A DNA stretch of 64,000 bases, taken from positions 6,169 through 70,168 of the forward strand of contig MFGA01000006.1 in the NCBI GenBank assembly GCA_001778095.1. Direction: 5' to 3'. The position numbers were made by a program, and so were the translations under genes. How positions within the stretch are numbered: position 1 is the stretch's first letter; every line of letters starts with the position of its first letter. This DNA comes from Candidatus Falkowbacteria bacterium RIFOXYA2_FULL_38_12 (GTDB taxonomy: Bacteria > Patescibacteriota > Patescibacteriia > XYB2-FULL-38-15). This document shows, in pieces, positions 13,011 through 57,214 of the stretch. Below the pieces are notes generated by a model. The model was given only the letters and a program-made list of their open reading frames with translations. It made no database searches and was not told the DNA's origin.

Positions 13011-13249
13011 AAAACTCTAAATCCGAAATCCTAAACTCTAAACAAATACTAATATCAAAAGCCCCCTCAATTTATCATCCCGAGCTTGTCGACCGCGTGT
13101 CGCTAAAGCTTCAGCGAGTGGCGCAGGGATCTCACGCCGTGGTTAAAGAAGTATTATGGGATTTCTCGACAAGCTCGAAATGACAGAAATAGTTTTTGAT
13201 TTTGTATTTTGGATTTGTTTAGGATTTGGTGCTTAGGATTTAGGATTTC
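13011..13249. repeat. Repeat family E copy 1 (arms AAATCCTAAACTCTAAACAAA / TTTGTTTAGGATTTGGTGCTTAGGATTTAGGATTT) with a family-C element nested inside
   Basis: Left arm 13011-13046, right arm 13201-13249. The interior carries family-C copy 13073-13195. Same arms at 20621-20759 and inside the 16S gene. Confidence 0.7.
13073..13195. repeat. Repeat family C copy 1 (TGTCATCCCGAGCTTGTCGA...TCGACAAGCTCGAAATGACA) carrying an inserted CGCTAAAGCT mini-hairpin module
   Basis: About-20-bp TIRs. Relative to copy 2 (48102-48180) it has a 33-nt insertion ccgcgtgtcgctaaagcttcagcgagtggcgca. Confidence 0.75.
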
Positions 13250-23305: not shown

Positions 23306-23477
23306 AAAGGTGAAGTTTATAAGTTAGTAAGTTTATAAGCTGATAAATAAGTGGGAGTGACAGCCTTTAGGCTGTTATTATTCAAGAAATAGGGAGAAGC
23401 GGATTTTGCCAGCGGCCGTTACGTCAATTTTGCTAAGGCGCAGGCTAAAGCCTGCTACTCCGGAATTACGTAGAAAT

Positions 23478-24481: not shown

Positions 24482-24580
24482 GTTAAAAGTGAAAAATGAA
24501 AAGTGCAAAGTTACGGTTAAAATTAAAATAATTTTTTACTTTAAATTTTAACTTTTCATTTTTCACCTTACACTTTTAAC
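24482..24580. repeat. Palindromic AAGTTAAAAGTGAAAAGT-type element (family H); right arm overlaps polA stop region
   Basis: Arms gttaaaagtgaaaaatgaaaagtgcaaagtta / taacttttcatttttcaccttacacttttaac. Same unit at 56621-56710 and inside uvrB, uvrC and trmD. Confidence 0.7.
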
Positions 24581-26301
24581 TGTTTTTTTAGTTCTCCCCA
24601 ACTATTTCCAACTTTGATCTCCGCGATAATCGGGACTTTTAGTTTTATAATTTTCTCCATAGTGTCTTTTACAAGCTTGGCGACTTTTTCCAAATCTTTT
24701 TCCGGCACTTCAAAAACCAATTCGTCGTGTACCTGTAGAATAATTTTAGAACGGGGGCTGACTTTGGGCAAATCTCGGTGAATTTTAATCATGGCCATTT
24801 TTATAATATCAGCCGCGGTTCCTTGGATGGGCATATTGATCGCCATTCTTTCCGCCTCGGCTTTGACCATCGGAATGGGTGAGAAAATTTCGGGCAAATA
24901 GCGTTTGCGACCGAAAATTGTTTCCACATATCCCAAATCGTAGGCCTTCTCTCTTGTTTCTCGCAAAAAATTGCTGACTCCTTCGTAAACTTCAAAATAT
25001 TTTTGGATAAATTCCCGAGCTTCGGTGATGGAAATTTCCGCGCTCTCGGCAAGGCCTTTGGCGCCCATGCCGTAAGTGACTCCGAAATTAATTGTTTTGG
25101 CCGCTCTCCTTATTTCCGGCGTAACATCTTTTAAATCAATTCCCCAAATTTTGGAAGCGGTTTGGCTGTGAATGTCTTCGCCATTTTTAAAAGCTCTGAT
25201 CATTTCCTCGTCATCAGCCAAAGAGGCGATAATTCTTAATTCAATATGAGCGTAATCGGCCGCGAGTATTTTTGTTCCCGCCGGCGCGATAAAAGCTTCC
25301 CGGATTACTTTTCCGAATTCTCCTTTGGTGGGAATATTTTGCAAGTTTGGATTAGAAGAAGAGAGGCGACCGGTAGAGGTTACTATTTGATTAAAGTCTG
25401 CATGGATTCGTCCGGTTTTTTTATCAATCAATTTTGGCAATGCTTCAAGATAAGTGGAGTTCAGTTTGGCAAGCTCGCGATATTGCAACATCTCTCCGGC
25501 AATCGGGTGAGCCTTTTTTAATTTTTGAAGGTCTCCGGCAGAAGTGGAGACGCCGGTTTTTCCCTTGCTTAATCCTTGAGTTTTTATTCCCAATTTTTCA
25601 AAAAGTATTTTTCTTAATTGAATAGGTGAATCAAGATTAAATTCCTCGCCGGCCATCTTATAAATTTTTTTGGCCAGTTCGTCTAAAATTATTGTTACTT
25701 TTTTTGACGCATTATTAAGAATAGCCGAGTTGATTTTTACTCCATTATTTTCAATCTCGGCCAAAACGGGTAAAAGGGGTAATTCAATTTCTTTAAAAAG
25801 TTTTAAGAGATTGACTTCTTCGAGTTCCGGCAAGAGCGCTTCTTTCAATTGCCAAATTATCATTGCGGACTGGCGCGAATACTCAAGAAGATCCTCCGAA
25901 GAGGCGTTTTTTTCGGGCAAAGGAAAATCTTTTTGCAGTTTTGTTGAGGCGAGTGTTTCTAAATTATAATTTCTAGCGCCGGGGTTTAAGAGATAAGAAG
26001 CGATAGCTGTATCAAAAGTGATTGACTGAACATTGATGCCATTTTGCGCAAGTAGTTTGATGCTTTGTTTCAAATCGTGTCCCCATTTTTCTATTTTCCT
26101 ATTTTCAAAAATAGGTTTTAGTTTGGCTAGGGATTTTTTATCAATCGGAAGATAAAAAGTTTCAGCGCCATTAAGGCAAAAGCTGATGCCAACGATTTTT
26201 TCGTCTGAAAAAGAAGAGTTAATATTAAAAACAAAAGCTCTTTCTTTGGCGAGCTTTTTTAAAAAATCGTTATATTCATTTTTGTCTTGGGTCGAAATCA
26301 T
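24568..26301 (-). CDS. polA: DNA polymerase I, polymerase (Klenow-like) portion lacking 5'-3' exonuclease domain
   Basis: 577 aa. Family A motifs RRAAKTINFGVTYGM and QVHDELVFE. Confidence 0.9.
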   Translation of the reverse strand: MISTQDKNEYNDFLKKLAKERAFVFNINSSFSDEKIVGISFCLNGAETFYLPIDKKSLAKLKPIFENRKIEKWGHDLKQSIKLLAQNGINVQSITFDTAIASYLLNPGARNYNLETLASTKLQKDFPLPEKNASSEDLLEYSRQSAMIIWQLKEALLPELEEVNLLKLFKEIELPLLPVLAEIENNGVKINSAILNNASKKVTIILDELAKKIYKMAGEEFNLDSPIQLRKILFEKLGIKTQGLSKGKTGVSTSAGDLQKLKKAHPIAGEMLQYRELAKLNSTYLEALPKLIDKKTGRIHADFNQIVTSTGRLSSSNPNLQNIPTKGEFGKVIREAFIAPAGTKILAADYAHIELRIIASLADDEEMIRAFKNGEDIHSQTASKIWGIDLKDVTPEIRRAAKTINFGVTYGMGAKGLAESAEISITEAREFIQKYFEVYEGVSNFLRETREKAYDLGYVETIFGRKRYLPEIFSPIPMVKAEAERMAINMPIQGTAADIIKMAMIKIHRDLPKVSPRSKIILQVHDELVFEVPEKDLEKVAKLVKDTMEKIIKLKVPIIAEIKVGNSWGELKKQLKV

Positions 26302-26324: not shown

Positions 26325-26442
26325 GCGGAGCGACCGCGTGCCGCCTTAGCTTTAGCGGTGGCGCAAGAATCTCTGGGCTTGTCCCAGAATTGCTCGCATT
26401 CGCGAGAGATCCTTCCCCCGCAAAAGGCGGGGTCAGGATGAC
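26325..26442. repeat. Hairpin repeat family A copy 5 (with internal CCTTAGCTTTAGCGG mini-hairpin in inverse orientation)
   Basis: Same ends as family A. The interior is replaced by a segment with the CGCTAAAGCT module reverse-complemented. Confidence 0.7.
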
Positions 26443-26453
26443 GGCTTGGGTAG

Positions 26454-27368
26454 TTAAAACAAATTCCCCTGCGAGCCGGCCACCAAACTGTTTACTTTTG
26501 GAACAAGAGAATTAAATCCTAGCTCCTCAAAGATTTTAATAATGGGCGCAACGTCTATTTTTATTTTACAATCCTCTAAACTAAATTCAAAAGGCGCGTC
26601 CAAGACAAGAGTGACTAGTCTTTTTCCCAAGAGGACATTATCCTTTTCATTTTTTAAAATCTCCAAAGTCCGTTTTTTTATTTTTTCTATTTTTGGATCA
26701 TTTGACTCAATTGCCGAGTACAATTTTTCAATGGAATAAAATTCTTTGATAAGTTCAATTGCACCGACTTCACCAATGCCACGCGCGCCGGGAATATTGT
26801 CCGAAGGATCTCCCCGCAGTGCCTTGTAGTCAATTAATTGTTTTGGGGCAAAACCGTATCTTTCTTTTACTTTTTCTTCATCATAAAGAACAGTGTCGGT
26901 AATGCCTCTTTGTAAGGCGCAAACTTTTGTGTTGCCATCAACCAATTGCAGGACATCCATATCTCCGGTAATAACAACAGTTTCTATTTCCGGAATATTT
27001 ACTTTTTTATCAGCGCAAATTGTCGCGATTACGTCATCAGCCTCATATCGGCTTAATTCGTAGATGGGAATGTTAAATGATTTTACAATATCTTTGATGA
27101 TGGGTATTTGGGAGTAAAGTTCGTCCGGTTGTTTTGGCCTTTGAGCTTTATATTCTTTATATTCTTCGTGGCGAAAAGTTTTTTCTTTTCGGTCAAAAGT
27201 AACCGCGCCATAGACTGGCTTTAAATCTTTTATGGCTTTCATTAAAATCAGGGTAAAACCATACGCTGCGTTGACCGGCTGACCGTCTTTTTTGGAAGTA
27301 AGAGGGGGGAGGGCGTGCCAAGCGCGATGCAAAATAGCATTGCCATCAATGACGATGAATTTTTTCAT
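26454..27368 (-). CDS. 5'-3' exonuclease / flap endonuclease (Pol I N-terminal domain homolog, stand-alone)
   Basis: Start at MKKFIVIDGNAILHRAW (27368). The track ORF extends to 27440 into tRNA-Cys, which is spurious. PIN-like and H3TH 5'-nuclease motifs. Confidence 0.85.
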   Translation of the reverse strand: MKKFIVIDGNAILHRAWHALPPLTSKKDGQPVNAAYGFTLILMKAIKDLKPVYGAVTFDRKEKTFRHEEYKEYKAQRPKQPDELYSQIPIIKDIVKSFNIPIYELSRYEADDVIATICADKKVNIPEIETVVITGDMDVLQLVDGNTKVCALQRGITDTVLYDEEKVKERYGFAPKQLIDYKALRGDPSDNIPGARGIGEVGAIELIKEFYSIEKLYSAIESNDPKIEKIKKRTLEILKNEKDNVLLGKRLVTLVLDAPFEFSLEDCKIKIDVAPIIKIFEELGFNSLVPKVNSLVAGSQGNLF

Positions 27369-27373
27369 AAAAA

Positions 27374-27446
27374 AGGCCACGGCGGGAATTGCACCCGCGA
27401 ATAGCGGTTTTGCAGACCGCAGTGTTAGCTGCTTCACCACGTGGCC
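27374..27446 (-). tRNA. tRNA-Cys(GCA)
   Basis: Acceptor GGCCACG/CGTGGCC, anticodon stem GCGGT/ACCGC with loop CTGCAAA, T-arm GCGGG-TGCAATT-CCCGC, discriminator U73 (Cys identity), no CCA. Five to six nt from each neighbouring CDS. Confidence 0.85.
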
Positions 27447-27451
27447 ATTAA

Positions 27452-28249
27452 TTATTTTATAAAATTTTGGTAAATTCTATATTTCTTGATTAAATATAGC
27501 TTATTTTTTATATTCTTGTAAAGATAGCTTAGGATTTTTAATCCGTCTTGTTGAGAGTATCTCAGTTGATAACTTCTCCGACTGTTTAATGTCCTGTGTA
27601 AATTAATTTTGATGTTTTCGCTAATTAAGGCAGAAAGTTTGTCCAAAAAATTTTTGCATCCGGAAGTAAAAATAACTCTCAATGTTCCTCTGGATTTTTC
27701 GATGTGGACACATCCATCTCCGTCAAAGTATCCTCTCAAAAAACTTCCAAAATATTTTTTAGGAATAGCCGGCATTTCCAGATCAAGTGATTTGTTTGGA
27801 TGTAGCTTAAATTTACTTAAATCGTTAAAAATTTTATGGCTTCCAATTCTTAGTATAAAACGAGTCTTTCTATTATTGTTGAGGGCGGGGAGACGAACTA
27901 TTTTATGCTCTGAACCTAACGCGTTTTTAATTTTACTAATAATTTTATAATCGGTGTTATGAATTCTTAAATATAGACCTCGTAGGTAAGAAGCATCCTC
28001 TAGACTGCCATCAGCAAAAATAAATCCTAAAATATAAGCCATCTCGTACGACCATTTTTCAAAAAATTTTTCATTAACTTTGTATTTTACCCCCATATTT
28101 GCAGTATATATCCTTACGACTAGCTCGTCAAAACTATGTACCAAAAAAGGTTGCTTTTCGCAACCTTTTTTAAATCTCTTTTTTAGAATATTTCCATTTT
28201 TAGTGTTCTGACTCCAAATTGTTTGGCCTCGCCTCTTGTTTCCATCCAA
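27452..28249 (-). CDS. Free-standing double-motif LAGLIDADG homing endonuclease
   Basis: Motifs ILGFIFADGS and LRGYFDGDGCV about 100 aa apart. Alternative start at Met52 (28096) would remove the overlap with the upstream 3D-domain gene. Confidence 0.75.
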   Translation of the reverse strand: MDGNKRRGQTIWSQNTKNGNILKKRFKKGCEKQPFLVHSFDELVVRIYTANMGVKYKVNEKFFEKWSYEMAYILGFIFADGSLEDASYLRGLYLRIHNTDYKIISKIKNALGSEHKIVRLPALNNNRKTRFILRIGSHKIFNDLSKFKLHPNKSLDLEMPAIPKKYFGSFLRGYFDGDGCVHIEKSRGTLRVIFTSGCKNFLDKLSALISENIKINLHRTLNSRRSYQLRYSQQDGLKILSYLYKNIKNKLYLIKKYRIYQNFIK

Positions 28250-28899: not shown

Positions 28900-29040
28900 G
28901 GGTCAATGGGCTGTATTTGGGGCGAGTGGTGCATACTTAACTTCAATCTTGCAAATGTCAAACTCCATTGACAAAGATATATATATGCCTTAATGGACTT
29001 ATCTCCGACTTTTGGATGTCGGAGGAAAGGAGGGCAGAAA

Positions 29041-29369
29041 TGCCCATTGTTGTTATATTACTAAAAGAAAGTAACGATGAAAGTAACGGGAGTGTCCGCG
29101 TAGTGAGAGACTTGGGGGAGGAAAAAGATGGGGAAATTGAGGTGTTCTATTCCAGCGCGGGGGATCTGGAAAGAATTGCGTTGGAGGCATTTTTTGCCGG
29201 GGTGAGATATGGGGAGGGGGAGGTACCTCCACCCATTATCCGCTCGAGGGGCACTCCTCGCCCCGACCCCGATATTGAGCTTGAAGAAGACGACAGATGT
29301 CTCATTCTCGAGGGGGCGGCGGCTGATCAATGGAGACTGAAACAGGCGGAGAGGGTGGAGAAGGAATAA
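29041..29369 (+). CDS. Small acidic hypothetical protein, GC-rich relative to the window
   Basis: Start at MPIVV, preceded by the SD-like motif AAAGGAGGG. Terminator at 29498-29528. GC content visibly higher than flanking genes. Confidence 0.4.
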
Positions 29370-29497
29370 CAACAAAAACCTTCCGTACAGGGAAGGTAAA
29401 ATATTCTGCCCCAAAAAGAGGGGGGCGGAGGAAGGTTTGGCTGTACACAAACCACCTTCTAATGTATATCAGTCTTGATTGGTGTTTATTAGAAGAG

Positions 29498-32731: not shown

Positions 32732-32751
32732 AGAAATATTAAAAATAAAAA

Positions 32752-32792
32752 ATTGACCCGCCCAGTACGTTTGCTGGGCGGGGTTTGTTTTG
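32752..32792 (+). terminator. Intrinsic terminator of efp
   Basis: cccgcccagtacgtttgctgggcggggtttgtttt. Confidence 0.6.
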
Positions 32793-33240
32793 AGGAGGTT
32801 CTTTAGGAGGGTTTTTTTGCTCCCCAATAGCCCTCCTTCATCTCTCCTTTTTGCAGGGCACAGTCGAAGTGCCCGTGGACATATTCCCCTCCAGGCATTT
32901 TCCCCCTAAAAAATACAGTGTTCTCATTTTTTAGTCGAGAAATATTAAGGAGGACAAAAGTGCATTGCCCCCCTTCGAGCATTAAAAAAATCAGTCCCCC
33001 GTTACGGGGGATAAAGAACCGATAAATATTTTTCGGCCCCCCAATAATTTTCCTCATCGCGTATCGCCTCCTTTGAGATGAGTGTTTTATTTATACACTA
33101 AATTATGCCATCTAGTCAACGGAATATATTTGACCAACTGTTTAATTTTAGATAATATTGGATTATAAAACTGAATAAGAATATTTTTACTTTACCCCTA
33201 GAAGGATCATCTTTTGGGGATTTTTGGCATTTTTTTTGTT

Positions 33241-33425
33241 TGTCATTGCGAGCCCCGACTTTTTAGTCGGGGCGTGGCAATTCTCCCCCAGCTGTCATCC
33301 CCGCGCAGGCGGGGATCCACTCTTTGTAAAAAGTAGATTCCCGCCTGCGCGGGAATGACAATAAAGATAAGGGTAACGAAAAGCAGGGGATTGCTTCGCT
33401 ACACTTCGTTTCGCTCGCAATGACA
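33241..33425. repeat. Repeat family B copy 2 with a nested hairpin element (33293-33360)
   Basis: Same perfect 12-bp TIRs as 14211-14352. Interior carries TGTCATCCCCGCGCAGGCGGGGA...TCCCGCCTGCGCGGGAATGACA. The right TIR overlaps the first ATG of the uvrB ORF. Confidence 0.8.
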
Positions 33426-35527
33426 TGTTATTATATATGAAAAATAAATTCAAAATAAAATCAAAATTTAAACCCGCCGGAGACCAACCAAAGGCAATTG
33501 AGCAATTATTGGATGGTCTTAATAAAGGATATGATCATCAAACTCTTTTGGGCGTGACCGGGTCTGGTAAAACTTTTACCATGGCTAATGTTATTGCCAA
33601 ATACGCAAAGCCGGCTTTGGTTATTGCTCACAATAAAACCTTGGCGGCCCAACTTTGTAACGAGTTTCGCGAATTTTTTCCCGAGAACGCGGTTCATTAT
33701 TTTGTTTCTTATTACGATTATTATCAACCGGAAGCGTATTTGCCGAGGACGGATACTTATATTGAAAAAGAGGCGATGATAAATGATGAGATTGATCGTT
33801 TGCGCCACGCGGCAACGCAGTCGCTCCTTACTCGGCGCGATGTGATTATTGTCGCGTCGGTTTCTTGCATCTATGGTTTGGGCGCGCCGGAAACTTATGA
33901 AAAAATAGTTTTGCATCTTAAAGAAGGGGAGGCGATTAGGAGAGATATTTTTTTGAATCAACTGATAACAATGCAATTTAATCGGACGAATGTTAATCCC
34001 AAACGTGGGGAATTTCGTTTGCGGGGAGAGATTTTGGAAATAATGCCGGTTAACGAAGAAACTATTTACAGAATAGTTTTTGATAACGAAAAAATTAAAA
34101 ATATTATAGAGCTTGATCCGGTGACGAGAAAAATAAAAAAGGAAGAAAGAGAAATTTGGATTTATCCGGCAAAACATTTTGTTATTTTGGGACCGGATAG
34201 AATCAGGGCATTTCAAAATATAGAAAAAGAATTAAAAGAGAGGTTGGAATATTTTAATAAAACGGGAAAGTTGCTTGAGGCGGAAAGGTTGGAGCGTCGG
34301 ACAAACTATGATTTGGAAATGATGCGCGAGGTTGGGTATTGCCACAGCATTGAAAATTATTCCAGGCATTTGTCGGGGCGCCAGGCAGGAGATCCGCCGG
34401 ATACATTGTTGGATTATTTTTCACCCTCCCCTAACTCCTCCCGTCAAGGGAGGGGAAATAACAAAAAGGATTGGTTGATGTTTATAGATGAATCGCACGT
34501 TACTGTCCCGCAGATTTCCGGAATGTACGGAGGAGACGCTTCCCGAAAAAAATCTTTGATTGATTTTGGATTTCGTTTGCCCTCGGCGGCTGATAATCGC
34601 CCGTTGAAATTCAATGAATTTGAAGCGCGGACGCCCCAGACAATTTACACTTCGGCGACTCCCAGCGAGTATGAATTGGGGAAGAGTAAACAAGTTGTTG
34701 AGCAAATAATCAGGCCGACAGGACTGCTTGATCCGGAAATTATCGTTAGACCGATCACAGAGAAGTTAAAAATGAAAAATGAAAAGTTAAAAGTTGGCGG
34801 TGATATGGGGAATAAATCCCAAGTGGAAGATTTGATGGAAAGAATTATTGAGAGAGTAAAAAAGAAAGAAAGAATTTTAGTGACAACTCTTACAAAAAAA
34901 ATGGCCGAGGATTTATCGGATTATTTGGAAGAGAAAAAGTTTAAAGTCCGTTATATTCACAGCGAGGTAAAGACTTTGGACAGAATAAAAATTTTAACAG
35001 AATTCAGGCGGGGAGTTTTTGATATTTTGATTGGGGTTAATTTGCTCCGCGAAGGTTTGGATTTGCCGGAAGTGACGCTCGTTGCGATTTTGGATGCCGA
35101 CAAGGAAGGATTTTTACGCAGTGAGACATCTTTGATTCAGACAATCGGTCGCGCGGCGAGAAATGTTTTGGGGCAAGTCGTTCTCTATGCCGACAATATG
35201 ACCGGATCAATGGAGCGAGCAATAAAAGAAACAGAGCGAAGAAGAAAAATACAAGCGGAATATAATAAAAAGCACAATATTACGCCGAAGACAATCAAAA
35301 AAGCGATTAAAGATATTATGAAAGTGAAAAGTGTAGAGTTAAAAGTGAAAAGTTTGTTGGAGCTAGACATAGCGGGGGAGAAAGGTAAAAATATTGAGGA
35401 GATTATTAAAGAAAAAGAAAAGGAAATGAAGGAAGCGGCACAAAATTTGCAGTTTGAGTTGGCGGCGTTGTTGAGGGATGAGATTAGGGAGTTGAGACAT
35501 TCTACGAAAGTACAAAAGATCAGATAA
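33425..35527 (+). CDS. uvrB: Excinuclease ABC subunit B
   Basis: 700 aa. Helicase motifs [14 protein letters not shown], beta-hairpin, C-terminal UVR domain. True start may be Met5 (33437). Contains in-frame repeat-derived insertions (see findings). Confidence 0.9.
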
Positions 35528-35699
35528 GCCTATTAGCAAGCCCCTCCCCTTAAGATAAGGGGCCGCGTGTCGCTAAAGCTATAGCGGCGGTGCAAGGATA
35601 GGAGGGGTTATGAGCGTTGGTTCATTACTCATAACTCCCCTTAATCCCCTCTTACCTTAAGAGGGGAGAACTCCCGGCAAGTTCTTTAAAATAAAAAAA

Positions 35700-35982
35700 T
35701 CCCACCGAGTATAAGTGTTCGATGCCGGTTTTGCGGACCGTTTTGCGCTGCATCGAGTTATACTCAGTGGGATATCGTGTAGTCACCATTTTGGAGGCAT
35801 TGCCCCGCTGGCCCCTGTGGGTCAGCTTAGTGTGGGGATGCCTTTCCTCCTTTCTTTTCCCGTTAGGGGGTTCGGTTTGCCGTGGTGGGGACGGACCCCT
35901 CTGAACCTAGAGGTTCCCCCTTTCATACCTTTCCGGGTAGACCCCACGGCAGTTTTTTGCCCTTTTTTTAAATAAGGGGGGC
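35700..35982. ncRNA. Candidate structured RNA (GC-rich block 1), identity and strand unresolved
   Basis: About 280 nt, GC-rich. Long-range complementary segments cccaccgagtataa/ttatactcagtggg, ccgtggtgggg/accccacgg and ggaggcattgcccc/ggggatgcc. Plus-strand hairpin plus T-run at 35955-35980. Minus-strand hairpin plus U-run at 35690-35700. Confidence 0.3.
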
Positions 35983-36157
35983 CAGTTCCGGCGTTCCCTC
36001 ATCGGGCGCCTCCATTCCTTTTCCCTCCCGGAGGGAGGGGGTTGATCAGGCGTCAGCCAGCTTGCACCACGTGACCGGGGCGATCTGCTTGGTCATTCGT
36101 GGCCTTCTTCTGATTCAGCCTACCGTTGGGGGTGGCTGAGTACCCCCTTTTCCTACG

Positions 36158-36512
36158 CATATTTTCAGGATATATATATATTAAAAAGTTGTCAAGCTAA
36201 AAAACAAAAAAACGCCTTGTGGCGTTAAAAAGAATAGTTGATGATAAAAATTGCCTCACCGGATACAAGCTGATCGTTTTTTGATGATCTTTCGACGCAA
36301 GCGTGCGTCAGGCTTGTGCCCGGTGAGGCTTCCGTACCCCGAAGGGTGTCTCGCAGAGGTCAGCTTGACCTCTTTCGGTGGGCACGAACGCCCTTCTTTT
36401 CCTGAACCATCATGTCACCTTTTTTCTGCCCGCCGGGGTTTCTACCGCGGTCGGGCTGGTTGAGAGTACAATTTCAGGATATATATATATATTAAAAAGC
36501 TGTCAAGAATTT
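36158..36512. repeat. Two 34-bp direct repeats (TTCAGGATATATATATATTAAAAAGYTGTCAAG) bracketing block 3
   Basis: Copies at about 36163-36196 and 36475-36508. Each carries a perfect TTGACA on the minus strand. Confidence 0.7.
36200..36470 (-). ncRNA. Candidate structured RNA (GC-rich block 3) with sigma70-like promoter and intrinsic terminator on minus strand
   Basis: Minus-strand TTGACA (plus 36501-36506) upstream of an AT-repeat -10. Minus-strand terminator: plus aacgccttgtggcgtt 36211-36226 preceded by A-run 36196-36210. Internal 10-bp long-range pair gcctcaccgg/ccggtgaggc and several GC hairpins including a UUCG loop. Confidence 0.35.
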
Positions 36513-36708
36513 GTATTTGTGGAAAAGGTGGGGATAAGTTCAATTTTTGAATTTTTAAACTTGAATTATCCGGAGTGATAGCCTTTAGGCTGTTATGTTA
36601 TGGGTAATAAGTTTGATAACACACTAAAGCGTGTCAGTCCGTTCAAGTTTAAGACATTAAAACATTAGAAAATTATTTATAAAATTAAAAATTAAAAATT
36701 TCAAAAAT

Positions 36709-39372
36709 ATGCAAGACAAAATAATCATCCACGGAGCGCGGGAACACAATTTGAAAAATATCAATCTTGAAATACCGAGAAACAAGATGACGGTTTTTAC
36801 GGGATTATCCGGTTCGGGAAAATCAAGCTTGGCTTTTGATACTATTTTTGCCGAAGGGCAGAGAAGATATGTTGAATCTTTGTCTGCCTACGCTCGGCAA
36901 TTTTTAGGGCAGATGAATAAACCAGATGTTGATGAAATTGAAGGGCTTTCTCCGGCGATTTCTATTGACCAAAAAGCACATAGCGCGAATCCTCGGTCAA
37001 CTGTGGCTACGATTACCGAAATTTATGATTATCTTAGAGTTTTGTTTGCGAGGATCGGCAAGCCTCATTGTCCGGTTTGCGGAAAAGAGATAAGAAAAAT
37101 GACGGTGGAGGAAATGGTGGATAGGGTATTGAAGAAAGTTGCCGAAAATCATCAGGCAAAAAATAATAAATTAAAGCCCGCATTCGCGGGAGATTCTTCG
37201 CTCGCTCAGAATGACATTGTTTTGGTTATGGCACCGGTGGTGAAGGGACGAAAAGGGGAATATTACCAATTGCTTTATGATTTATATAATGATGGATTTG
37301 CCGAAGTTCGGGTTAATGGAAAATTCAAAGAATTGAGAAATAAAATAATTTTGCCGAGATACAAGCAACACAATATTGATCTGGTGGTTGATAAAGTGAC
37401 TTTGGGTTGGCCAATAGAAAATAATAAAGGCTTAAGAGCGAGATTGGCCGAGGCGATTGAAACGGCTTTGAAATATGGCGGGGATATTGTTTCTATGATT
37501 TTGGATAATGGCGAAGAAATAGTGATGTCTTCAAAATTTTCCTGTCCGGAAGACAATTTTTCTTTTCCGGAAATTGAGCCACGTCTGTTTTCTTTTAATA
37601 GTCCTTATGGCGCTTGCGAAGCTTGTCATGGTCTTGGCACAAAATTTTTATTTTCTGAAGAAGTTTGTCCGGATTGCGAGGGGAATAGATTAAGGAAAGA
37701 AAGTTTGCACGTTTTGGTGGCCGGGAAAAATATTGTGGAAGTGACGGGAATGTCGATTGAAAATGCGCATAATTTTTTTTCAGAGCTGATGGGCAAAGAT
37801 CTTAAAACGTCTGCCCCTATTAAAGTTTCGGCGGACAAGGAAAAATTAAAACCAAGAATTATCCTAAGCGAGAATGATTTAGAGATCGGAAAAGCAATTT
37901 TCGCAGAAATACTGAACCGTCTGGGGTTTATGTTGGACGTCGGTTTGGGCTATTTAACTTTAAATAGAACCGCCGGGACTCTCTCGGGTGGGGAAGCGCA
38001 AAGGATTCGTCTCGCCTCGCAGGTTGGCTCAAAACTGGTCGGAGCTCTTTATATTTTGGATGAGCCGACAATCGGACTTCATCCCAAAGACAATGAAAAA
38101 TTATTAGCGACCTTGAGAAATATCAGGGACATTGGGAACACGGTCATTGTCGTGGAGCATGATCCGGAAACGATTTGGACGTCAGACTATCTGGTTGATA
38201 TTGGCCCGGGCGCGGGAAAGCACGGCGGGGAGATTGTGGCTGCCGGGCCAATGCCGGATGTCTTGGAAGATAAAAAATCTTTAACCGCGGCCTATCTTCG
38301 GGGAGATAAATTTATTAAAATTCCGGAGAAAAGAAGAAAAGTAGACGGAGAAAGCAAATATTTTTCTTCGGGACAATTAAAAATAGTCGGCGCGAACGAA
38401 AATAATTTAAAAAATATTGATGTTAGGATTCCCTTGAAGAGATTTGTCTGCGTGACCGGGGTTTCGGGATCGGGAAAAAGTACTTTGGTAAATGATATTT
38501 TATTGAAAGGTTTATCCAATAAGTTGAATCACACAAGCTATCAGGTAGGTAAGCATTCAAGAATTGAGGGGATGGAATATTTGGATAAAATTATTGAGAT
38601 TGATCAGTCGCCGATTGGAAGAACACCACGATCTAACCCGGCAACTTATACCGGATCATGGACAATGATTCGTGAGCTCTTTGCCTCTACTCCGGAAGCG
38701 CGAACTCGCGGTTATAAAGTGGGCAGATTTAGTTTTAATGTTCCTGGTGGCAGGTGTGAAAATTGCGAAGGAGCGGGATTAATAAAAGTGGAAATGCATT
38801 TTTTGCCGGCGGTTTATGTGCCCTGTGATGTTTGCAAGGGGACAAGATTTGATCGCGAAACTTTAGCGATTACCTATAAAGAAAAAAATATCCATGATAT
38901 TCTAAAAATGACGATTGAGGACGCCGAGGAATTTTTTAAGAATATTCCTTTGATAAAAGACAGAATGAAAATATTGCGCGAAGTTGGTTTGCAATATCTG
39001 ACTTTAGGACAAGCGGCGACAACTCTTTCCGGTGGGGAAGCGCAGAGAATAAAACTGGGTGCGGAGCTCGCTAAAAGATCAACCGGCCGGACGATTTATA
39101 TTTTGGATGAACCCACGGTCGGGCTTCATTATGCCGATGTGGAAAAACTTTTGGAAGTTTTGCATCGCCTTGTTAATTTAGGAAACACGGTGATTGTAAT
39201 TGAACATAATTTGGATTTTATTAAAACTGCCGATTGGATTATTGATTTGGGGCCCGACGGAGGCAATGCCGGAGGCGAGCTGATTACCGCCGGCACGCCG
39301 GAAGAAGTGGCAAGGATTGGGAAGTCATATACGGGGCAGTATTTGAAGAAAACTCTAAATTCGAAATCCTAG
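36709..39372 (+). CDS. uvrA: Excinuclease ABC subunit A
   Basis: 887 aa. Two ABC modules (GLSGSGKSSLAF, GVSGSGKSTLVN), zinc-finger Cys clusters, LSGGE signatures. Confidence 0.9.
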   Translation: MQDKIIIHGAREHNLKNINLEIPRNKMTVFTGLSGSGKSSLAFDTIFAEGQRRYVESLSAYARQFLGQMNKPDVDEIEGLSPAISIDQKAHSANPRSTVATITEIYDYLRVLFARIGKPHCPVCGKEIRKMTVEEMVDRVLKKVAENHQAKNNKLKPAFAGDSSLAQNDIVLVMAPVVKGRKGEYYQLLYDLYNDGFAEVRVNGKFKELRNKIILPRYKQHNIDLVVDKVTLGWPIENNKGLRARLAEAIETALKYGGDIVSMILDNGEEIVMSSKFSCPEDNFSFPEIEPRLFSFNSPYGACEACHGLGTKFLFSEEVCPDCEGNRLRKESLHVLVAGKNIVEVTGMSIENAHNFFSELMGKDLKTSAPIKVSADKEKLKPRIILSENDLEIGKAIFAEILNRLGFMLDVGLGYLTLNRTAGTLSGGEAQRIRLASQVGSKLVGALYILDEPTIGLHPKDNEKLLATLRNIRDIGNTVIVVEHDPETIWTSDYLVDIGPGAGKHGGEIVAAGPMPDVLEDKKSLTAAYLRGDKFIKIPEKRRKVDGESKYFSSGQLKIVGANENNLKNIDVRIPLKRFVCVTGVSGSGKSTLVNDILLKGLSNKLNHTSYQVGKHSRIEGMEYLDKIIEIDQSPIGRTPRSNPATYTGSWTMIRELFASTPEARTRGYKVGRFSFNVPGGRCENCEGAGLIKVEMHFLPAVYVPCDVCKGTRFDRETLAITYKEKNIHDILKMTIEDAEEFFKNIPLIKDRMKILREVGLQYLTLGQAATTLSGGEAQRIKLGAELAKRSTGRTIYILDEPTVGLHYADVEKLLEVLHRLVNLGNTVIVIEHNLDFIKTADWIIDLGPDGGNAGGELITAGTPEEVARIGKSYTGQYLKKTLNSKS

Positions 39373-53832: not shown

Positions 53833-53896
53833 AAGCCTTATTTTTGCTCTTTAATCAGTGTGGAAAGACTGTGGAAAATAACAAAGGATAGAATAC

Positions 53897-53924
53897 TTGA
53901 CAGCTTTTTAATGGGCGGGTAATA
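53897..53924 (+). promoter_or_regulatory. Candidate rRNA promoter (TTGACA-16-TAATAT)
   Basis: Perfect -35 and a near-consensus -10, about 180 nt upstream of the 16S 5' end. Confidence 0.45.
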
Positions 53925-54099
53925 TAGAGCATATCCCCCAGAATGGGGAATTTTCTTTGACAACTTAAAGTGATAGAAATACCTCAATTCTTTAAATAAG
54001 AATAAATATAGTTATATATTGAGAGCTTGAACTCCGGTCTTCGGACCGGGTTGATTTTGTTCTTCTGAACAAAATTTAAGAGATTCAACACTTTCATTT

Positions 54100-55875
<1,776 letters not shown>

Positions 55876-56109: not shown

Positions 56110-56186
56110 GGGCGCGTAGCTCAGTCGGTTAGAGCGCGTCACTGATAATGACGAGGTCGGAGGTTCGATTCCTCCCGCGCCCACCA
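56110..56186 (+). tRNA. tRNA-Ile(GAT)
   Basis: GGGCGCG acceptor, anticodon loop CTGATAA, T-arm GGAGG-TTCGATT-CCTCC, encoded CCA. Confidence 0.9.
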
Positions 56187-56290
56187 GTACAAGGCTTAGG
56201 TTAATTCCATAACTCGGCGGAGCAATAATCACTAAAGATAATTGTTTACTGAGTGCTTTAATGAACCTATGCCTCGTGCGTGGCCCACCA
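56187..56290. repeat. Family D copy 2 immediately after tRNA-Ile CCA, ending in a duplicated GCCCACCA
   Basis: gtacaaggcttaggttaat...cggcggagcaataatc...ttgtttactgagt...cgtggcccacca. GCCCACCA is present at both ends. Confidence 0.7.
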
Positions 56291-56537
56291 AAGGAAAAAT
56301 ATGGTCAAGAATTTTTTAAAGTTAATTTTAAGCGGACTTGTTGGCGGGATCTCTGGGGCTATTGCCGGATTTTTGTTGTTATTTTTAGTAAAGGCGTTGA
56401 TTTTTTTGCTTTGTTTTATTTTTCAAAATTCATGTCATAACGAAGCGCCGATTGAAGTACTTGCTATGTTGAGTATTGGTTCGGGAACAATTTTGGGCGG
56501 AATATTTGGAATAATACTTTTTTTGAAAAAAATATAA
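56280..56537 (+). CDS. Possible small hydrophobic protein (start uncertain; 5' part overlaps repeat)
   Basis: 85-aa ORF starting at GTG. Internal Met at MVKNF. Two predicted TM helices. Could be spurious. Confidence 0.3.
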   Translation: MAHQRKNMVKNFLKLILSGLVGGISGAIAGFLLLFLVKALIFLLCFIFQNSCHNEAPIEVLAMLSIGSGTILGGIFGIILFLKKI

Positions 56538-56542
56538 ATTTT

Positions 56543-56614
56543 GCCGGGGTAGCTCAGTGGTAGAGCAGAGGACTGAAAATCCTCGTGTCGAGAGTCCGAT
56601 TCTCTCCCCCGGCA
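56543..56614 (+). tRNA. tRNA-Phe(GAA)
   Basis: GCCGGGG acceptor, anticodon loop CTGAAAA, T-arm GAGAG-TCCGATT-CTCTC, no CCA. Confidence 0.9.
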
Positions 56615-56620
56615 TTTGAG

Positions 56621-56710
56621 AAGTTAAAAATGAAAAATGCAAAGTTAAAAGTTAATGAGTGAAAATTTTCACAATTCAAAAACTTTTAACTTTTAACTTT
56701 AGACTTTTAA
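56621..56710. repeat. Palindromic family-H element (AAGTTAAAAATGAAAAATGCAAAGTTAAAAGTTAA ... AACTTTTAACTTTTAACTTT)
   Basis: Inverted arms between tRNA-Phe and tRNA-Pro. Confidence 0.7.
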
Positions 56711-56715
56711 CTTTT

Positions 56716-56789
56716 TCGGGGTGTAGCCCAGTAGTCTAAGGCGCATGCTTTGGGAGCATGAGATCGAGGGTGCGAATCCCTCCACCCCG
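56716..56789 (+). tRNA. tRNA-Pro(TGG)
   Basis: Acceptor CGGGGTG/CACCCCG, anticodon stem CATGC/GCATG with loop TTTGGGA, T-arm GAGGG-TGCGAAT-CCCTC. D-stem has only 3 clean pairs. Confidence 0.75.
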
Positions 56790-56806
56790 ATTGAAAATAA
56801 AATAAT

Positions 56807-57124
56807 ATGGAAGAGGAAAAAGACCTTAATATTCTAAGTGAAAAGGAAATAAGAGAAAGACTGAATAGTTTTTCCGGTTGGATTTTTATTGATAATAAAA
56901 TAACAAAAACTTTTTTATTTTCCAGTTTTAATGACGCTTTGGCGATAATTAATGAATTGGCGCCATTTTGTAATAATATTGATCATCATCCGGATATACA
57001 TATTTATTACAAAAAAGTTGTTTTTGATTTACGGCGTTTTAGTGTTGGTGGCAAAGTAACGGAACGGGATTTTACTGTGGCAAAAAAGATAGATGATTTA
57101 TATTTTTCGAGAGACATTAAGTAA
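56807..57124 (+). CDS. Putative pterin-4a-carbinolamine dehydratase (PCD/DCoH family)
   Basis: 105 aa. The DHHPDIHIYYKKVVF...GGKVT pattern resembles the PCD signature. My 1-based counting of the displayed sequence is off by one from the ORF track here. Confidence 0.55.
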   Translation: MEEEKDLNILSEKEIRERLNSFSGWIFIDNKITKTFLFSSFNDALAIINELAPFCNNIDHHPDIHIYYKKVVFDLRRFSVGGKVTERDFTVAKKIDDLYFSRDIK

Positions 57125-57139
57125 AATAAAAATACTCGC

Positions 57140-57214
57140 GCAGGTGTCGTATAATGGCTATTATGTCACCCTTCCAAGGTGAAGACGCCGGTTCGATTCC
57201 GGTCACCTGCTCCA
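57140..57214 (+). tRNA. tRNA-Gly(TCC)
   Basis: Acceptor GCAGGTG/CACCTGC, anticodon loop CTTCCAA, T-arm GCCGG-TTCGATT-CCGGT, U73, encoded CCA. Confidence 0.75.

Follow-up and report, generated by a model that had tools for sequence, protein, structure and literature searches.

Predicted structured small RNA genes in the gap between uvrB and uvrA of a groundwater Falkowbacteria genome

The DNA analysed here is a stretch of 64,000 nt, referred to below as the window, from a genome of groundwater Patescibacteria (Candidate Phyla Radiation, CPR) belonging to Falkowbacteria, and the element in question is the gap between its genes uvrB and uvrA. The uvrB gene (33425-35527, plus strand, 700 aa) was recognised from its open reading frame (ORF) and Pfam domains, and uvrA (36709-39372, plus strand, 887 aa) has uvrC next downstream. 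Both UvrB and UvrA are 100% identical to proteins of Candidatus Falkowbacteria bacterium RIFOXYB2_FULL_38_15. The gap of 1181 nt between them (35528-36708) is the longest of the window outside the rRNA region and also the most GC-rich non-rRNA gap, with a GC content of up to 0.53-0.58 in 200-nt segments against a window mean of 0.39. An earlier sequence-only reading had described it as a GC-rich 1.2-kb block without a credible ORF, and this description was confirmed: the longest ORFs have 86 and 70 aa (both on the plus strand), and no ORF is supported. The same reading interpreted the whole block as one or more stable RNA genes. Minus-strand units with their own promoters and terminators are indeed present. 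One of them, named RNA-B, is under purifying and structure-preserving selection and has same-site RNAs in relatives. However, the gap is not one block but a composite of RNA-B, a second unit (RNA-A) within a lineage-specific insertion of 712 bp, a repeat of the repetitive extragenic palindromic (REP) type and a repeat resembling a miniature inverted-repeat transposable element (MITE). The two repeats account for ~330 of the 1181 nt, and RNA-A and RNA-B are single-copy in the window. The gap probably contains one or more independent genes for structured small RNAs (sRNAs) which do not belong to the classical housekeeping RNAs.

In both units a predicted sigma-70 promoter and a predicted intrinsic terminator enclose no supported protein gene, as would be the case for an independent sRNA gene. 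RNA-B (36203-36471, minus strand) is a putative structured sRNA gene of ~270 nt, ancestral and conserved, with a start expected near 36471. Its promoter (36476-36506, minus strand) has TTGACA at 36506-36501, followed by TATATC after a 17-nt spacer or by TATCCT after a 19-nt spacer. RNA-A (35692-36160, minus strand) is a putative GC-rich transcript of ~470 nt that should start near 36160, and its promoter (36167-36195, minus strand), a direct repeat of the RNA-B promoter, consists of TTGACA, a 17-nt spacer and TATCCT, with 10/12 consensus matches. Two 34-bp direct repeats, each with TTGACA on the minus strand, had been noticed in the sequence-only reading. The boxes are there, followed by TATCCT or TATATC, and the repeats were located at 36163-36196 and 36472-36507, with 92% identity and a 2-nt AT indel. 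The 26-mer TTGACARCTTTTTAATATATATATAT, covering the -35 box and the spacer, has exactly two exact copies in the window, with 0 expected by chance. Two TTGACA promoter-like sites were also found upstream of the 16S rRNA gene (53896-53990). One of them, P1 (TTGACA, 17 nt, TAATAT), is identical to cTTGACAgctttttaat of the RNA-B promoter in 17/17 bases (53896-53912); the second starts with TTGACAACTT, and the RNA-A promoter resembles that site as read from the letters. A similar TTGACA-(AT)n promoter precedes a protein gene at 29041, and this promoter type therefore marks strong expression and not stable RNAs alone.

At the end of RNA-B, the minus-strand terminator proposed earlier at 36196-36226 was found at 36226-36211 plus a T-run. 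This intrinsic terminator (36204-36226, minus strand) reads AACGCCACAAGGCGTT followed by the U-run TTTTTTTGTTTT, and it is kept in a sibling species with changes in the loop only. A second minus-strand terminator, suspected at 35690-35700, corresponds to the U7 tail (35698-35692) of a 75-nt hairpin (35773-35699) whose 16-nt arms are 94% complementary. Hairpin and tail (35692-35773, minus strand; T-run read from the sequence) would form the intrinsic terminator of RNA-A, which was missed by a simple terminator scanner because the stem-loop is long. The plus-strand terminator proposed at 35955-35980 exists as a site (35948-35961 plus a T-run), but it is weak, with 5 pairs including 3 GC. Folding energies of the gap were better than those of shuffles on both strands (z = -4.3 to -6.6), so that the strand cannot be chosen from folding alone; the z values were -6.6 for RNA-B and -4.3 for RNA-A, the latter better than all shuffles.

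RNA-B was compared with that of the sibling species (contigs L009 and L268-L270), whose uvrB/uvrA DNA is 92-94% identical to the window. Protein identities are 98.9% for UvrA and 92.6% for UvrB, 4-fold sites differ by 0.22-0.24 (a neutral rate of ~23%), and the sibling's uvrB-uvrA gap is only 491 nt. The 5' domain of RNA-B has 11 substitutions in 145 aligned positions (0.076), which is about one third of the neutral rate. Two blocks are invariant, namely a 46-nt core (36329-36374, minus strand; AAGAGGUCAAGCUGACCUCUGCGAGACACCCUUCGGGGUACGGAAG) with 0/46 substitutions and a 31-nt 3' tail (36220-36250, minus strand; UUUUUAUCAUCAACUAUUCUUUUUAACGCCA) with 0/31; the calculated chance is ~6e-6 for the former at the 23% neutral rate and ~3e-4 for the latter. 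Between them lies a variable Y-shaped domain with a three-way junction (36254-36328, minus strand), which has 75 nt in the window and 84 nt in the sibling. It changes at about the neutral rate, with 25% of the aligned bases different and 25 gap nt, and when folded independently in both species it gave an outer stem with two hairpins each time (-37.2 and -38.8 kcal/mol). Furthermore, the 5' hairpin carries C->U on one arm and the matching G->A on the other, which looks compensatory. Purifying selection in combination with compensatory changes, as expected of a structured functional RNA, was found for RNA-B, the one unit of the two with homologues. Judged from these substitution patterns, RNA-B is a real structured RNA gene under selection on both sequence and structure. 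When the invariant tail was used as a query for complementary sites in the window, 5 non-self sites were obtained versus 1.3 expected, a weak excess, with none at a gene start; the 5' end of RNA-B was also used as a query in this search.

Six lineages (L010, L013, L094, L096, L261 and L263) were further found to have a GC-rich RNA of ~300 nt between uvrB and uvrA, matching RNA-B in place and strand. These relatives have ~77-79% UvrB identity to the window. Two of them, L261 and L263, were new among the 4 loci obtained by a metagenome scan with a 22-base gapped pattern derived from the relatives' RNA, and a UvrB search of genome contigs gave, among the matches listed, distant taxa only (<=62% identity). 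Comparative folding of related intergenic regions, which the sequence-only reading had proposed, was carried out and provided covariation support in the six relatives. In their consensus structure 95% of the pair cells are canonical versus 42-50% with the partners slid, and 14 pairs are changed on both sides versus 6.0 ± 1.8 in shuffles (0/500 shuffles reach 14). There are 72 G-U pairs which become C-A on the other strand, and 95% of the cells are paired on the minus strand versus 80% on the plus strand. The minus strand is therefore supported, with the caveat that the structure was predicted on the minus strand from these same sequences.

The forms of the window and of the relatives have position, orientation, size and element order in common. 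From the 5' end, UUGUAC and a hairpin are followed by a purine-rich AGGUG tract, AUG and a variable region, and further on come a small hairpin, ACGGA(A/G), the domain of the long terminal hairpin, the pyrimidine-rich tail and the terminator. Both forms were aligned by MAFFT with the common blocks UUGUAC, AGGUG, GGGCGUUCG, UGA..UCUGCGAGA and ACGGA, and UCUGCGAGA and ACGGA(A/G) of the RNA-B core recur in the relatives' RNAs. The two forms are thus probable orthologues as far as their sequences and synteny indicate. On sequence grounds, the RNA-B family is a new, unclassified and narrowly distributed orphan sRNA family, known from ~8 lineages of one Falkowbacteria-related clade. Among the outcomes which the sequence-only reading had considered, a lineage-specific RNA is the one that survives.

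Several points weigh against this interpretation. The window's own form of RNA-B is known from two distinct sequences only, and its link to the relatives' form is made by synteny, architecture and short common blocks. A nhmmer profile built from the relatives only had no match in the window, and sequence homology between the two forms is therefore weak. The pairing statistics are inflated because the same sequences served both to predict the consensus structure and to count its pairs. No such RNA was found at the uvrB-uvrA junction of four lineages (L011, L265, L266 and L271), so it is dispensable there or has moved; in L264, protein genes occupy the junction instead of the RNA. Every member of the RNA-B family has a short ORF after a tract resembling a Shine-Dalgarno (SD) sequence, and a purely non-coding reading is therefore not secure. 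Finally, no homologue was found from which selection on RNA-A could be judged, and RNA-A may be young or non-functional.

The promoter of the relatives' RNA (TTGACA-17-TAATAAT) is situated 6-8 nt from the uvrA ATG, and its terminator overlaps the 3' end of uvrB. The -35 box lies on the strand opposite to uvrA at 12330-12360 in L010, 12310-12340 in L013 and 8320-8345 in L094. With the box so close to the ATG, uvrA must have almost no leader or none at all, or else its transcription must start within the sRNA gene, and promoter occlusion between the sRNA and uvrA is possible in the relatives. This arrangement would suit a role mainly in cis, as would the position between uvrB and uvrA that is kept across lineages and the sibling's uvrB ORF, which continues into the strand antisense to the RNA-B terminator. 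Strong antisense or divergent transcription from the sRNA promoter would then insulate or repress the two genes, uvrA through occlusion of its promoter and uvrB through convergent transcription into its 3' end, with the RNA product being secondary. However, interference alone needs no selection on the RNA body, and the selection on its sequence and structure extends far beyond promoter and terminator. Moreover, a MITE-like element of 165 nt separates the promoter from uvrA in the window, and four relatives lack the RNA at the site. A role mainly in cis was thus considered improbable.

The sequence-only reading had named RNase P RNA, signal recognition particle (SRP) RNA, transfer-messenger RNA (tmRNA) and 6S RNA as candidates, and none of them fits. 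The Rfam check that it suggested was run, and the RNase P, SRP, tmRNA and 6S models had no match on the gap. At gathering scores nothing was found in the whole window beyond rRNA and tRNAs, and four relatives' loci searched in the same way gave no housekeeping-RNA match. At E<=10, four sub-regions (290-1600 nt) and the relatives' RNA gave only chance-level matches, one of them Ms_IGR-5 (E=0.1), which was driven by the terminator. Only tRNAs and no tmRNA were found in the window by ARAGORN. For RNase P RNA, neither RNaseP_bact_a nor RNaseP_bact_b matched, with the caveat that matches of a few bits, as in some CPR genomes, fail E<=10. Some CPR RNase P RNAs were found only below the noise cutoff bit score of the model and required manual refolding (PMC8172020). 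As CPR RNase P RNAs can be hard to detect, the sequences were also inspected by eye. The P4 helix requires conserved region I (CR-I, GAGGAAAGUCC) near the 5' end and conserved region V (CR-V, ACAGAA.CCGGCUUA) near the 3' end, and this arrangement is absent: RNA-A has a CR-I-like GGAGGAAAGGC ~320 nt in, with no CR-V partner and only the terminator hairpin downstream, and RNA-B has neither element. For tmRNA, no T-arm or acceptor end was seen and the short ORFs have no tag-like ending, in agreement with the Rfam and ARAGORN results. SRP RNA had no Rfam match and no motif like GGUCAGGUCCGGAAGGAAGCAGCC of domain IV was seen by eye. 6S RNA likewise had no Rfam match, and the multibranched minimum free energy and centroid folds, which include a three-way junction, do not resemble a rod with a large central bubble; such a predicted structure alone is not decisive.

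One of the RNAs could still be a highly diverged RNase P RNA, tmRNA, SRP RNA or 6S RNA missed by standard models, in line with the CPR RNase P RNAs that evade standard thresholds (PMC8172020), the rRNA-like promoters and the resemblance of GGAGGAAAGGC in RNA-A to the CR-I GAGGAAAGUCC. This is very unlikely. No family matched even at E<=10 on sub-regions of 290-490 nt or on the relatives' RNA, the CR-I-like string lies too far into RNA-A to leave enough RNA downstream, and the SRP, tmRNA and 6S hallmarks named above are missing. In addition, RNA-A is missing in the sibling and RNA-B in four relatives at the site, which is unexpected for an essential single-copy RNA unless it has moved.

Some features of known RNAs are nevertheless present. 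Like 6S RNA and other abundant housekeeping small RNAs, RNA-B is predicted to have a gene of its own, between a strong promoter and an intrinsic terminator, it is GC-rich and structured in an AT-rich genome, and its shape is kept more than its sequence in part of the molecule. Unlike 6S RNA, it has no covariance model match, is multibranched, is longer (270-300 nt) and is patchily distributed even among close relatives. As in tmRNA, a short ORF with its stop codon in a hairpin lies inside an RNA that is predicted to be stable and structured, but here there is no tRNA-like domain or alanine-type tag end, and the 5' and 3' ends form no acceptor stem. The RNAs raiA, OLE and ROOL are orphan GC-rich structured RNAs that came from screens of intergenic regions. 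The present RNAs resemble them as a GC-rich, ORF-free and well-folding island in an AT-rich genome with covariation support, and differ from them in that none of these Rfam families matches and, for the RNA-B family, in being known from ~8 lineages only, all of one clade, and in keeping a fixed syntenic position. No lineage-specific structured RNA from Patescibacteria was found described in Rfam or by full-text searches of the literature.

The short ORF requires separate consideration. In RNA-B, a candidate ORF of 17 codons (36360-36413, minus strand) for the basic peptide MMVQEKKGVRAHRKRSS follows AAGGUGA, and the sibling version reads MFQQEKGVRAHRKRKRSS with a 6-nt in-frame indel. The relatives have ORFs of 16-24 codons for basic peptides at the aligned AUG, with UGA at nearly the same aligned position. 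These observations might suggest that tiny basic peptides (17 aa in RNA-B, 16-24 aa in the relatives and 34-41 aa in RNA-A) are encoded by the transcripts, as mRNAs or as dual-function RNAs, with the folded remainder being a stabilising or regulatory 3' untranslated region. An SD-like purine tract (AAGGAGGUGG in the relatives, AAGGUGA in the window) and then an aligned AUG occur in all members, the open frame ends at the UGA, and the indels between the closest pairs (6, 9 and 9 nt) are all in frame. Some genes of these genomes do have strong SD sequences. By eye, the peptides of RNA-A and RNA-B have GVR(A/P)H in common, and those of RNA-A and L010/L094 have SRF in common with different codons. 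On the other hand, a hand count over four close pairs gave ~6 synonymous versus ~21 non-synonymous changes, which is near neutral. No other part of the 5' domain varies as much as the ORF, the invariant blocks lie outside it, the reading frame across the common GGGCGUUCG block differs between members, and helices 4-6 inside the ORF region show changes on both sides. There is no Pfam match, the RNA-A ORF matches only what appear to be spurious, repeat-derived ORFs, and an open frame of 20 codons is expected about half the time in GC-rich sequence. Coding for tiny peptides, alone or in a dual function, was regarded as unlikely but kept as the main alternative. Read-through of the UGA, which would give a 70-codon ORF across RNA-B, was also rejected, as the frame is not open in the relatives and the 'protein' of the Y-domain is wholly different between the siblings. 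The combination of a structured, regulatory-type RNA with a short ORF after a tract like a ribosome-binding site is known from SR1/SR1P of Bacillus, RNAIII/delta-haemolysin and SgrS/SgrT. The RNAs here differ from those systems in that no sequence or model similarity exists and the peptide is not conserved and is a candidate only.

Most genes of the window have AT-rich leaders without an SD sequence (e.g., those with starts at 36709, 40911, 48274 and 50649), and L010 and L013 contain a minority of GC-rich hypothetical genes with a strong one. The 3' end of the 16S rRNA is GGAUCACCUCCUUUCU, which keeps the anti-SD tail CACCUCCUUUCU. In RNA-A, AGAAAGGAGG (35846-35855, minus strand) is a perfect 10-nt complement of the 16S 3' tail CCUCCUUUCU, found post hoc, and no start codon follows it. 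It is conceivable, as an outside chance, that the RNA-B family is a CPR-lineage RNA co-regulated with rRNA which engages the ribosome directly as an SD mimic. The candidate mimics are AAGGAGGUGG in the relatives, AGGUGA in RNA-B and AGAAAGGAGG in RNA-A, all of them post hoc observations, and in RNA-B and the relatives the putative mimic is followed by a short ORF that appears unconstrained in sequence. The role of such an RNA could be that of an mRNA serving as decoy or sensor, or that of a regulatory RNA bound to the ribosome. If so, the RNA would represent a new functional class and not a base-pairing sRNA.

The second unit, RNA-A, belongs to the insertion of 712 bp (35494-36205), which contains a new uvrB 3' end, REP-like DNA, RNA-A and the promoter copy. 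In the sibling, the base corresponding to window position 35493 joins directly to that of 36206 with clean breakpoints. More distant relatives have a single RNA abutting the uvrB stop, and an insertion in the lineage of the window is therefore the parsimonious reading. The last 34 nt of uvrB in the window are part of the insertion, which supplies a new and shorter C-terminus: UvrB has 726 aa in the sibling (L269 350-2530) versus 700 aa in the window, since the sibling frame extends into the strand antisense to the RNA-B terminator. The RNA-A region is 100% identical in 7 same-species contigs from different samples, and it is absent from the sibling and all relatives at the uvrB-uvrA site. No homologue was obtained from Rfam, the RNA-B family profile, the fetched related loci, phages and plasmids (blastn) or the translated ORF; 14-mer scans of viral contigs gave chance matches only, none of which was upheld by nhmmer. 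Outside the promoter, the local alignment of RNA-A with RNA-B is no better than shuffles and the RNA-B family profile misses RNA-A, so paralogy is not supported; the 9-mer AAGCUGACC is common to both, with ~0.5 expected by chance. A basic ORF of 41 codons inside RNA-A (35822-35947, minus strand) is not supported as a gene, as its product has no Pfam match and its 4 matches among 1.84 billion proteins all look like spurious ORFs derived from tandem repeats. The 86-aa plus-strand ORF over RNA-A matched only itself among 5.8 billion proteins.

From its promoter and terminator, RNA-A is probably transcribed. It is possible that RNA-A, and with it the whole insertion, is non-functional, recent, repeat-rich DNA which by chance contains a duplicated promoter and a hairpin with a T-run. 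The absence of RNA-A from the sibling and all relatives at the site and from every search route points in this direction, as do the REP-like repeat in the left part that recurs in the window, the accumulation of small mobile repeats in this intergenic region, and the resemblance of the translated ORF to repeat-derived pseudo-ORFs only. However, the promoter is intact (10/12 consensus) and the terminator hairpin strong, the GC content of 0.56-0.58 stands out in a genome of 0.39, the fold energy beats all shuffles, the seven contigs from different samples are 100% identical, and the 35700-36160 part has no second copy in the window.

If the gap does hold independent sRNA genes, the following model can be proposed. 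RNA-B would be the ancestral, independently transcribed unit, driven by a strong sigma-70 promoter whose -35 box and spacer are a copy of those of the 16S P1, and ended by the intrinsic terminator. It would function in folded form and consist of a 5' domain that is conserved, an invariant junction (…UCUGCGAGA…ACGGAAG), a Y-domain of which only the shape is kept, and an invariant pyrimidine-rich 3' tail. We infer that the RNA may be abundant and growth-coupled, acting in trans with either the ribosome or a protein as its partner. Contact with the partner might then be made by the invariant junction and tail, both single-stranded, with the Y-domain as a structural spacer; this specific mode of partner binding is proposed only tentatively. 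RNA-A would be a second unit with a duplicated promoter that arrived in the species inside the insertion.

CPR organisms have tiny genomes and unusual ribosomes, and their regulation is largely uncharted. An RNA of ~270-300 nt under selection, with an rRNA-type promoter and at one syntenic site, would offer a handle on CPR-specific RNA biology, with translation or growth control as possible roles of the family. The locus also illustrates three points: intergenic RNA loci may expand when a promoter is duplicated and new DNA is inserted (RNA-A), a 'GC-rich non-coding block' can owe part of its length to REP and MITE repeats, and a functional core can be told from recent additions with the help of a sibling genome. 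The interest would be modest and for specialists if the family is limited to few genomes and RNA-A is non-functional.

The REP-like and MITE-like repeats flank the RNA genes. Downstream of uvrB, the GC-rich palindromic region (35528-35690) forms hairpins at 35599-35643 and 35645-35667. Its core (35563-35599) has further copies at 13093-13130 and 26334-26370, i.e., at least 3 copies in intergenic DNA, and reads CCGCGTGTCGCTAAAGCT.TAGCGG.GG.GCAAGGAT. Upstream of uvrA, the AT-rich MITE-like element (36542-36708, ~165 nt) is bounded by terminal inverted repeats of 20-24 nt. The sibling has a copy with 86% identity on the downstream side of uvrA (L268 4847-5006) and a different REP-type insert at the spot upstream of uvrA, and a 25-nt, 96% match lies elsewhere in the window (23354-23378). 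Dispersed copies, and terminal inverted repeats for the MITE-like element, were found for 35563-35599 and 36542-36708 and not for the bodies of RNA-A and RNA-B. Both regions are therefore alike to REP, bacterial interspersed mosaic element (BIME) and MITE repeats in being short, palindromic or bounded by inverted repeats, and present as copies in the window or the sibling. The uvrB-uvrA junction is a hot spot for small mobile repeats. Related motifs (CTCGCAATGAC / GGGAATGAC) occur just upstream of several gene starts, e.g., those of uvrB and of the genes at 13240, 24568 and 31007. The 693-nt gap upstream of uvrB (32732-33424) contains GC-rich repeat DNA as well, and its pseudo-ORFs read '...WIPACAGMT...' and '...AGGDPLF...', which is typical of spurious translations of intergenic repeats.

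Other features were recorded in the relatives and in the window. On the relatives' minus strand, a conserved ORF of 87-93 aa with no Pfam match lies between uvrA and uvrC (L010 15005-15274, L013 15026-15289, L094 10958-11230 and L096 11360-11641). An SD motif precedes it in L010 and L013, the two that were checked. The ORF is absent from the window, whose uvrA-uvrC gap is 166 nt. The 16S rRNA match in the window (54098-55874) has 1777 nt versus 1533 nt in the model, so that ~240 nt of the gene are insertion(s). Downstream lie tRNA-Ile, Phe, Pro and Gly (56110-57214), with no 23S rRNA in the remaining 8 kb, i.e., the rRNA operon is unlinked. Such 16S insertions and unlinked rRNA operons are typical of CPR bacteria. 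The protein gene at 29041-29369 (plus strand; region 28968-29400) encodes a hypothetical acidic protein of 109-117 aa with no Pfam match, and it has a TTGACA-(AT)n-TAATGG promoter, a 5' hairpin, the strong SD sequence AAAGGAGGG and GC of up to 0.61. From these features it is apparently a second unusually GC-rich and highly expressed unit in the window. Finally, in the region 26454-28249, a LAGLIDADG_3 homing-endonuclease-like ORF (~27452-28249, minus strand) adjoins tRNA-Cys (27374-27446, minus strand). Beside this ORF, DNA polymerase I is split into a separate 5'-3' exonuclease (26454-27440, minus strand) and polymerase (24568-26301, minus strand).

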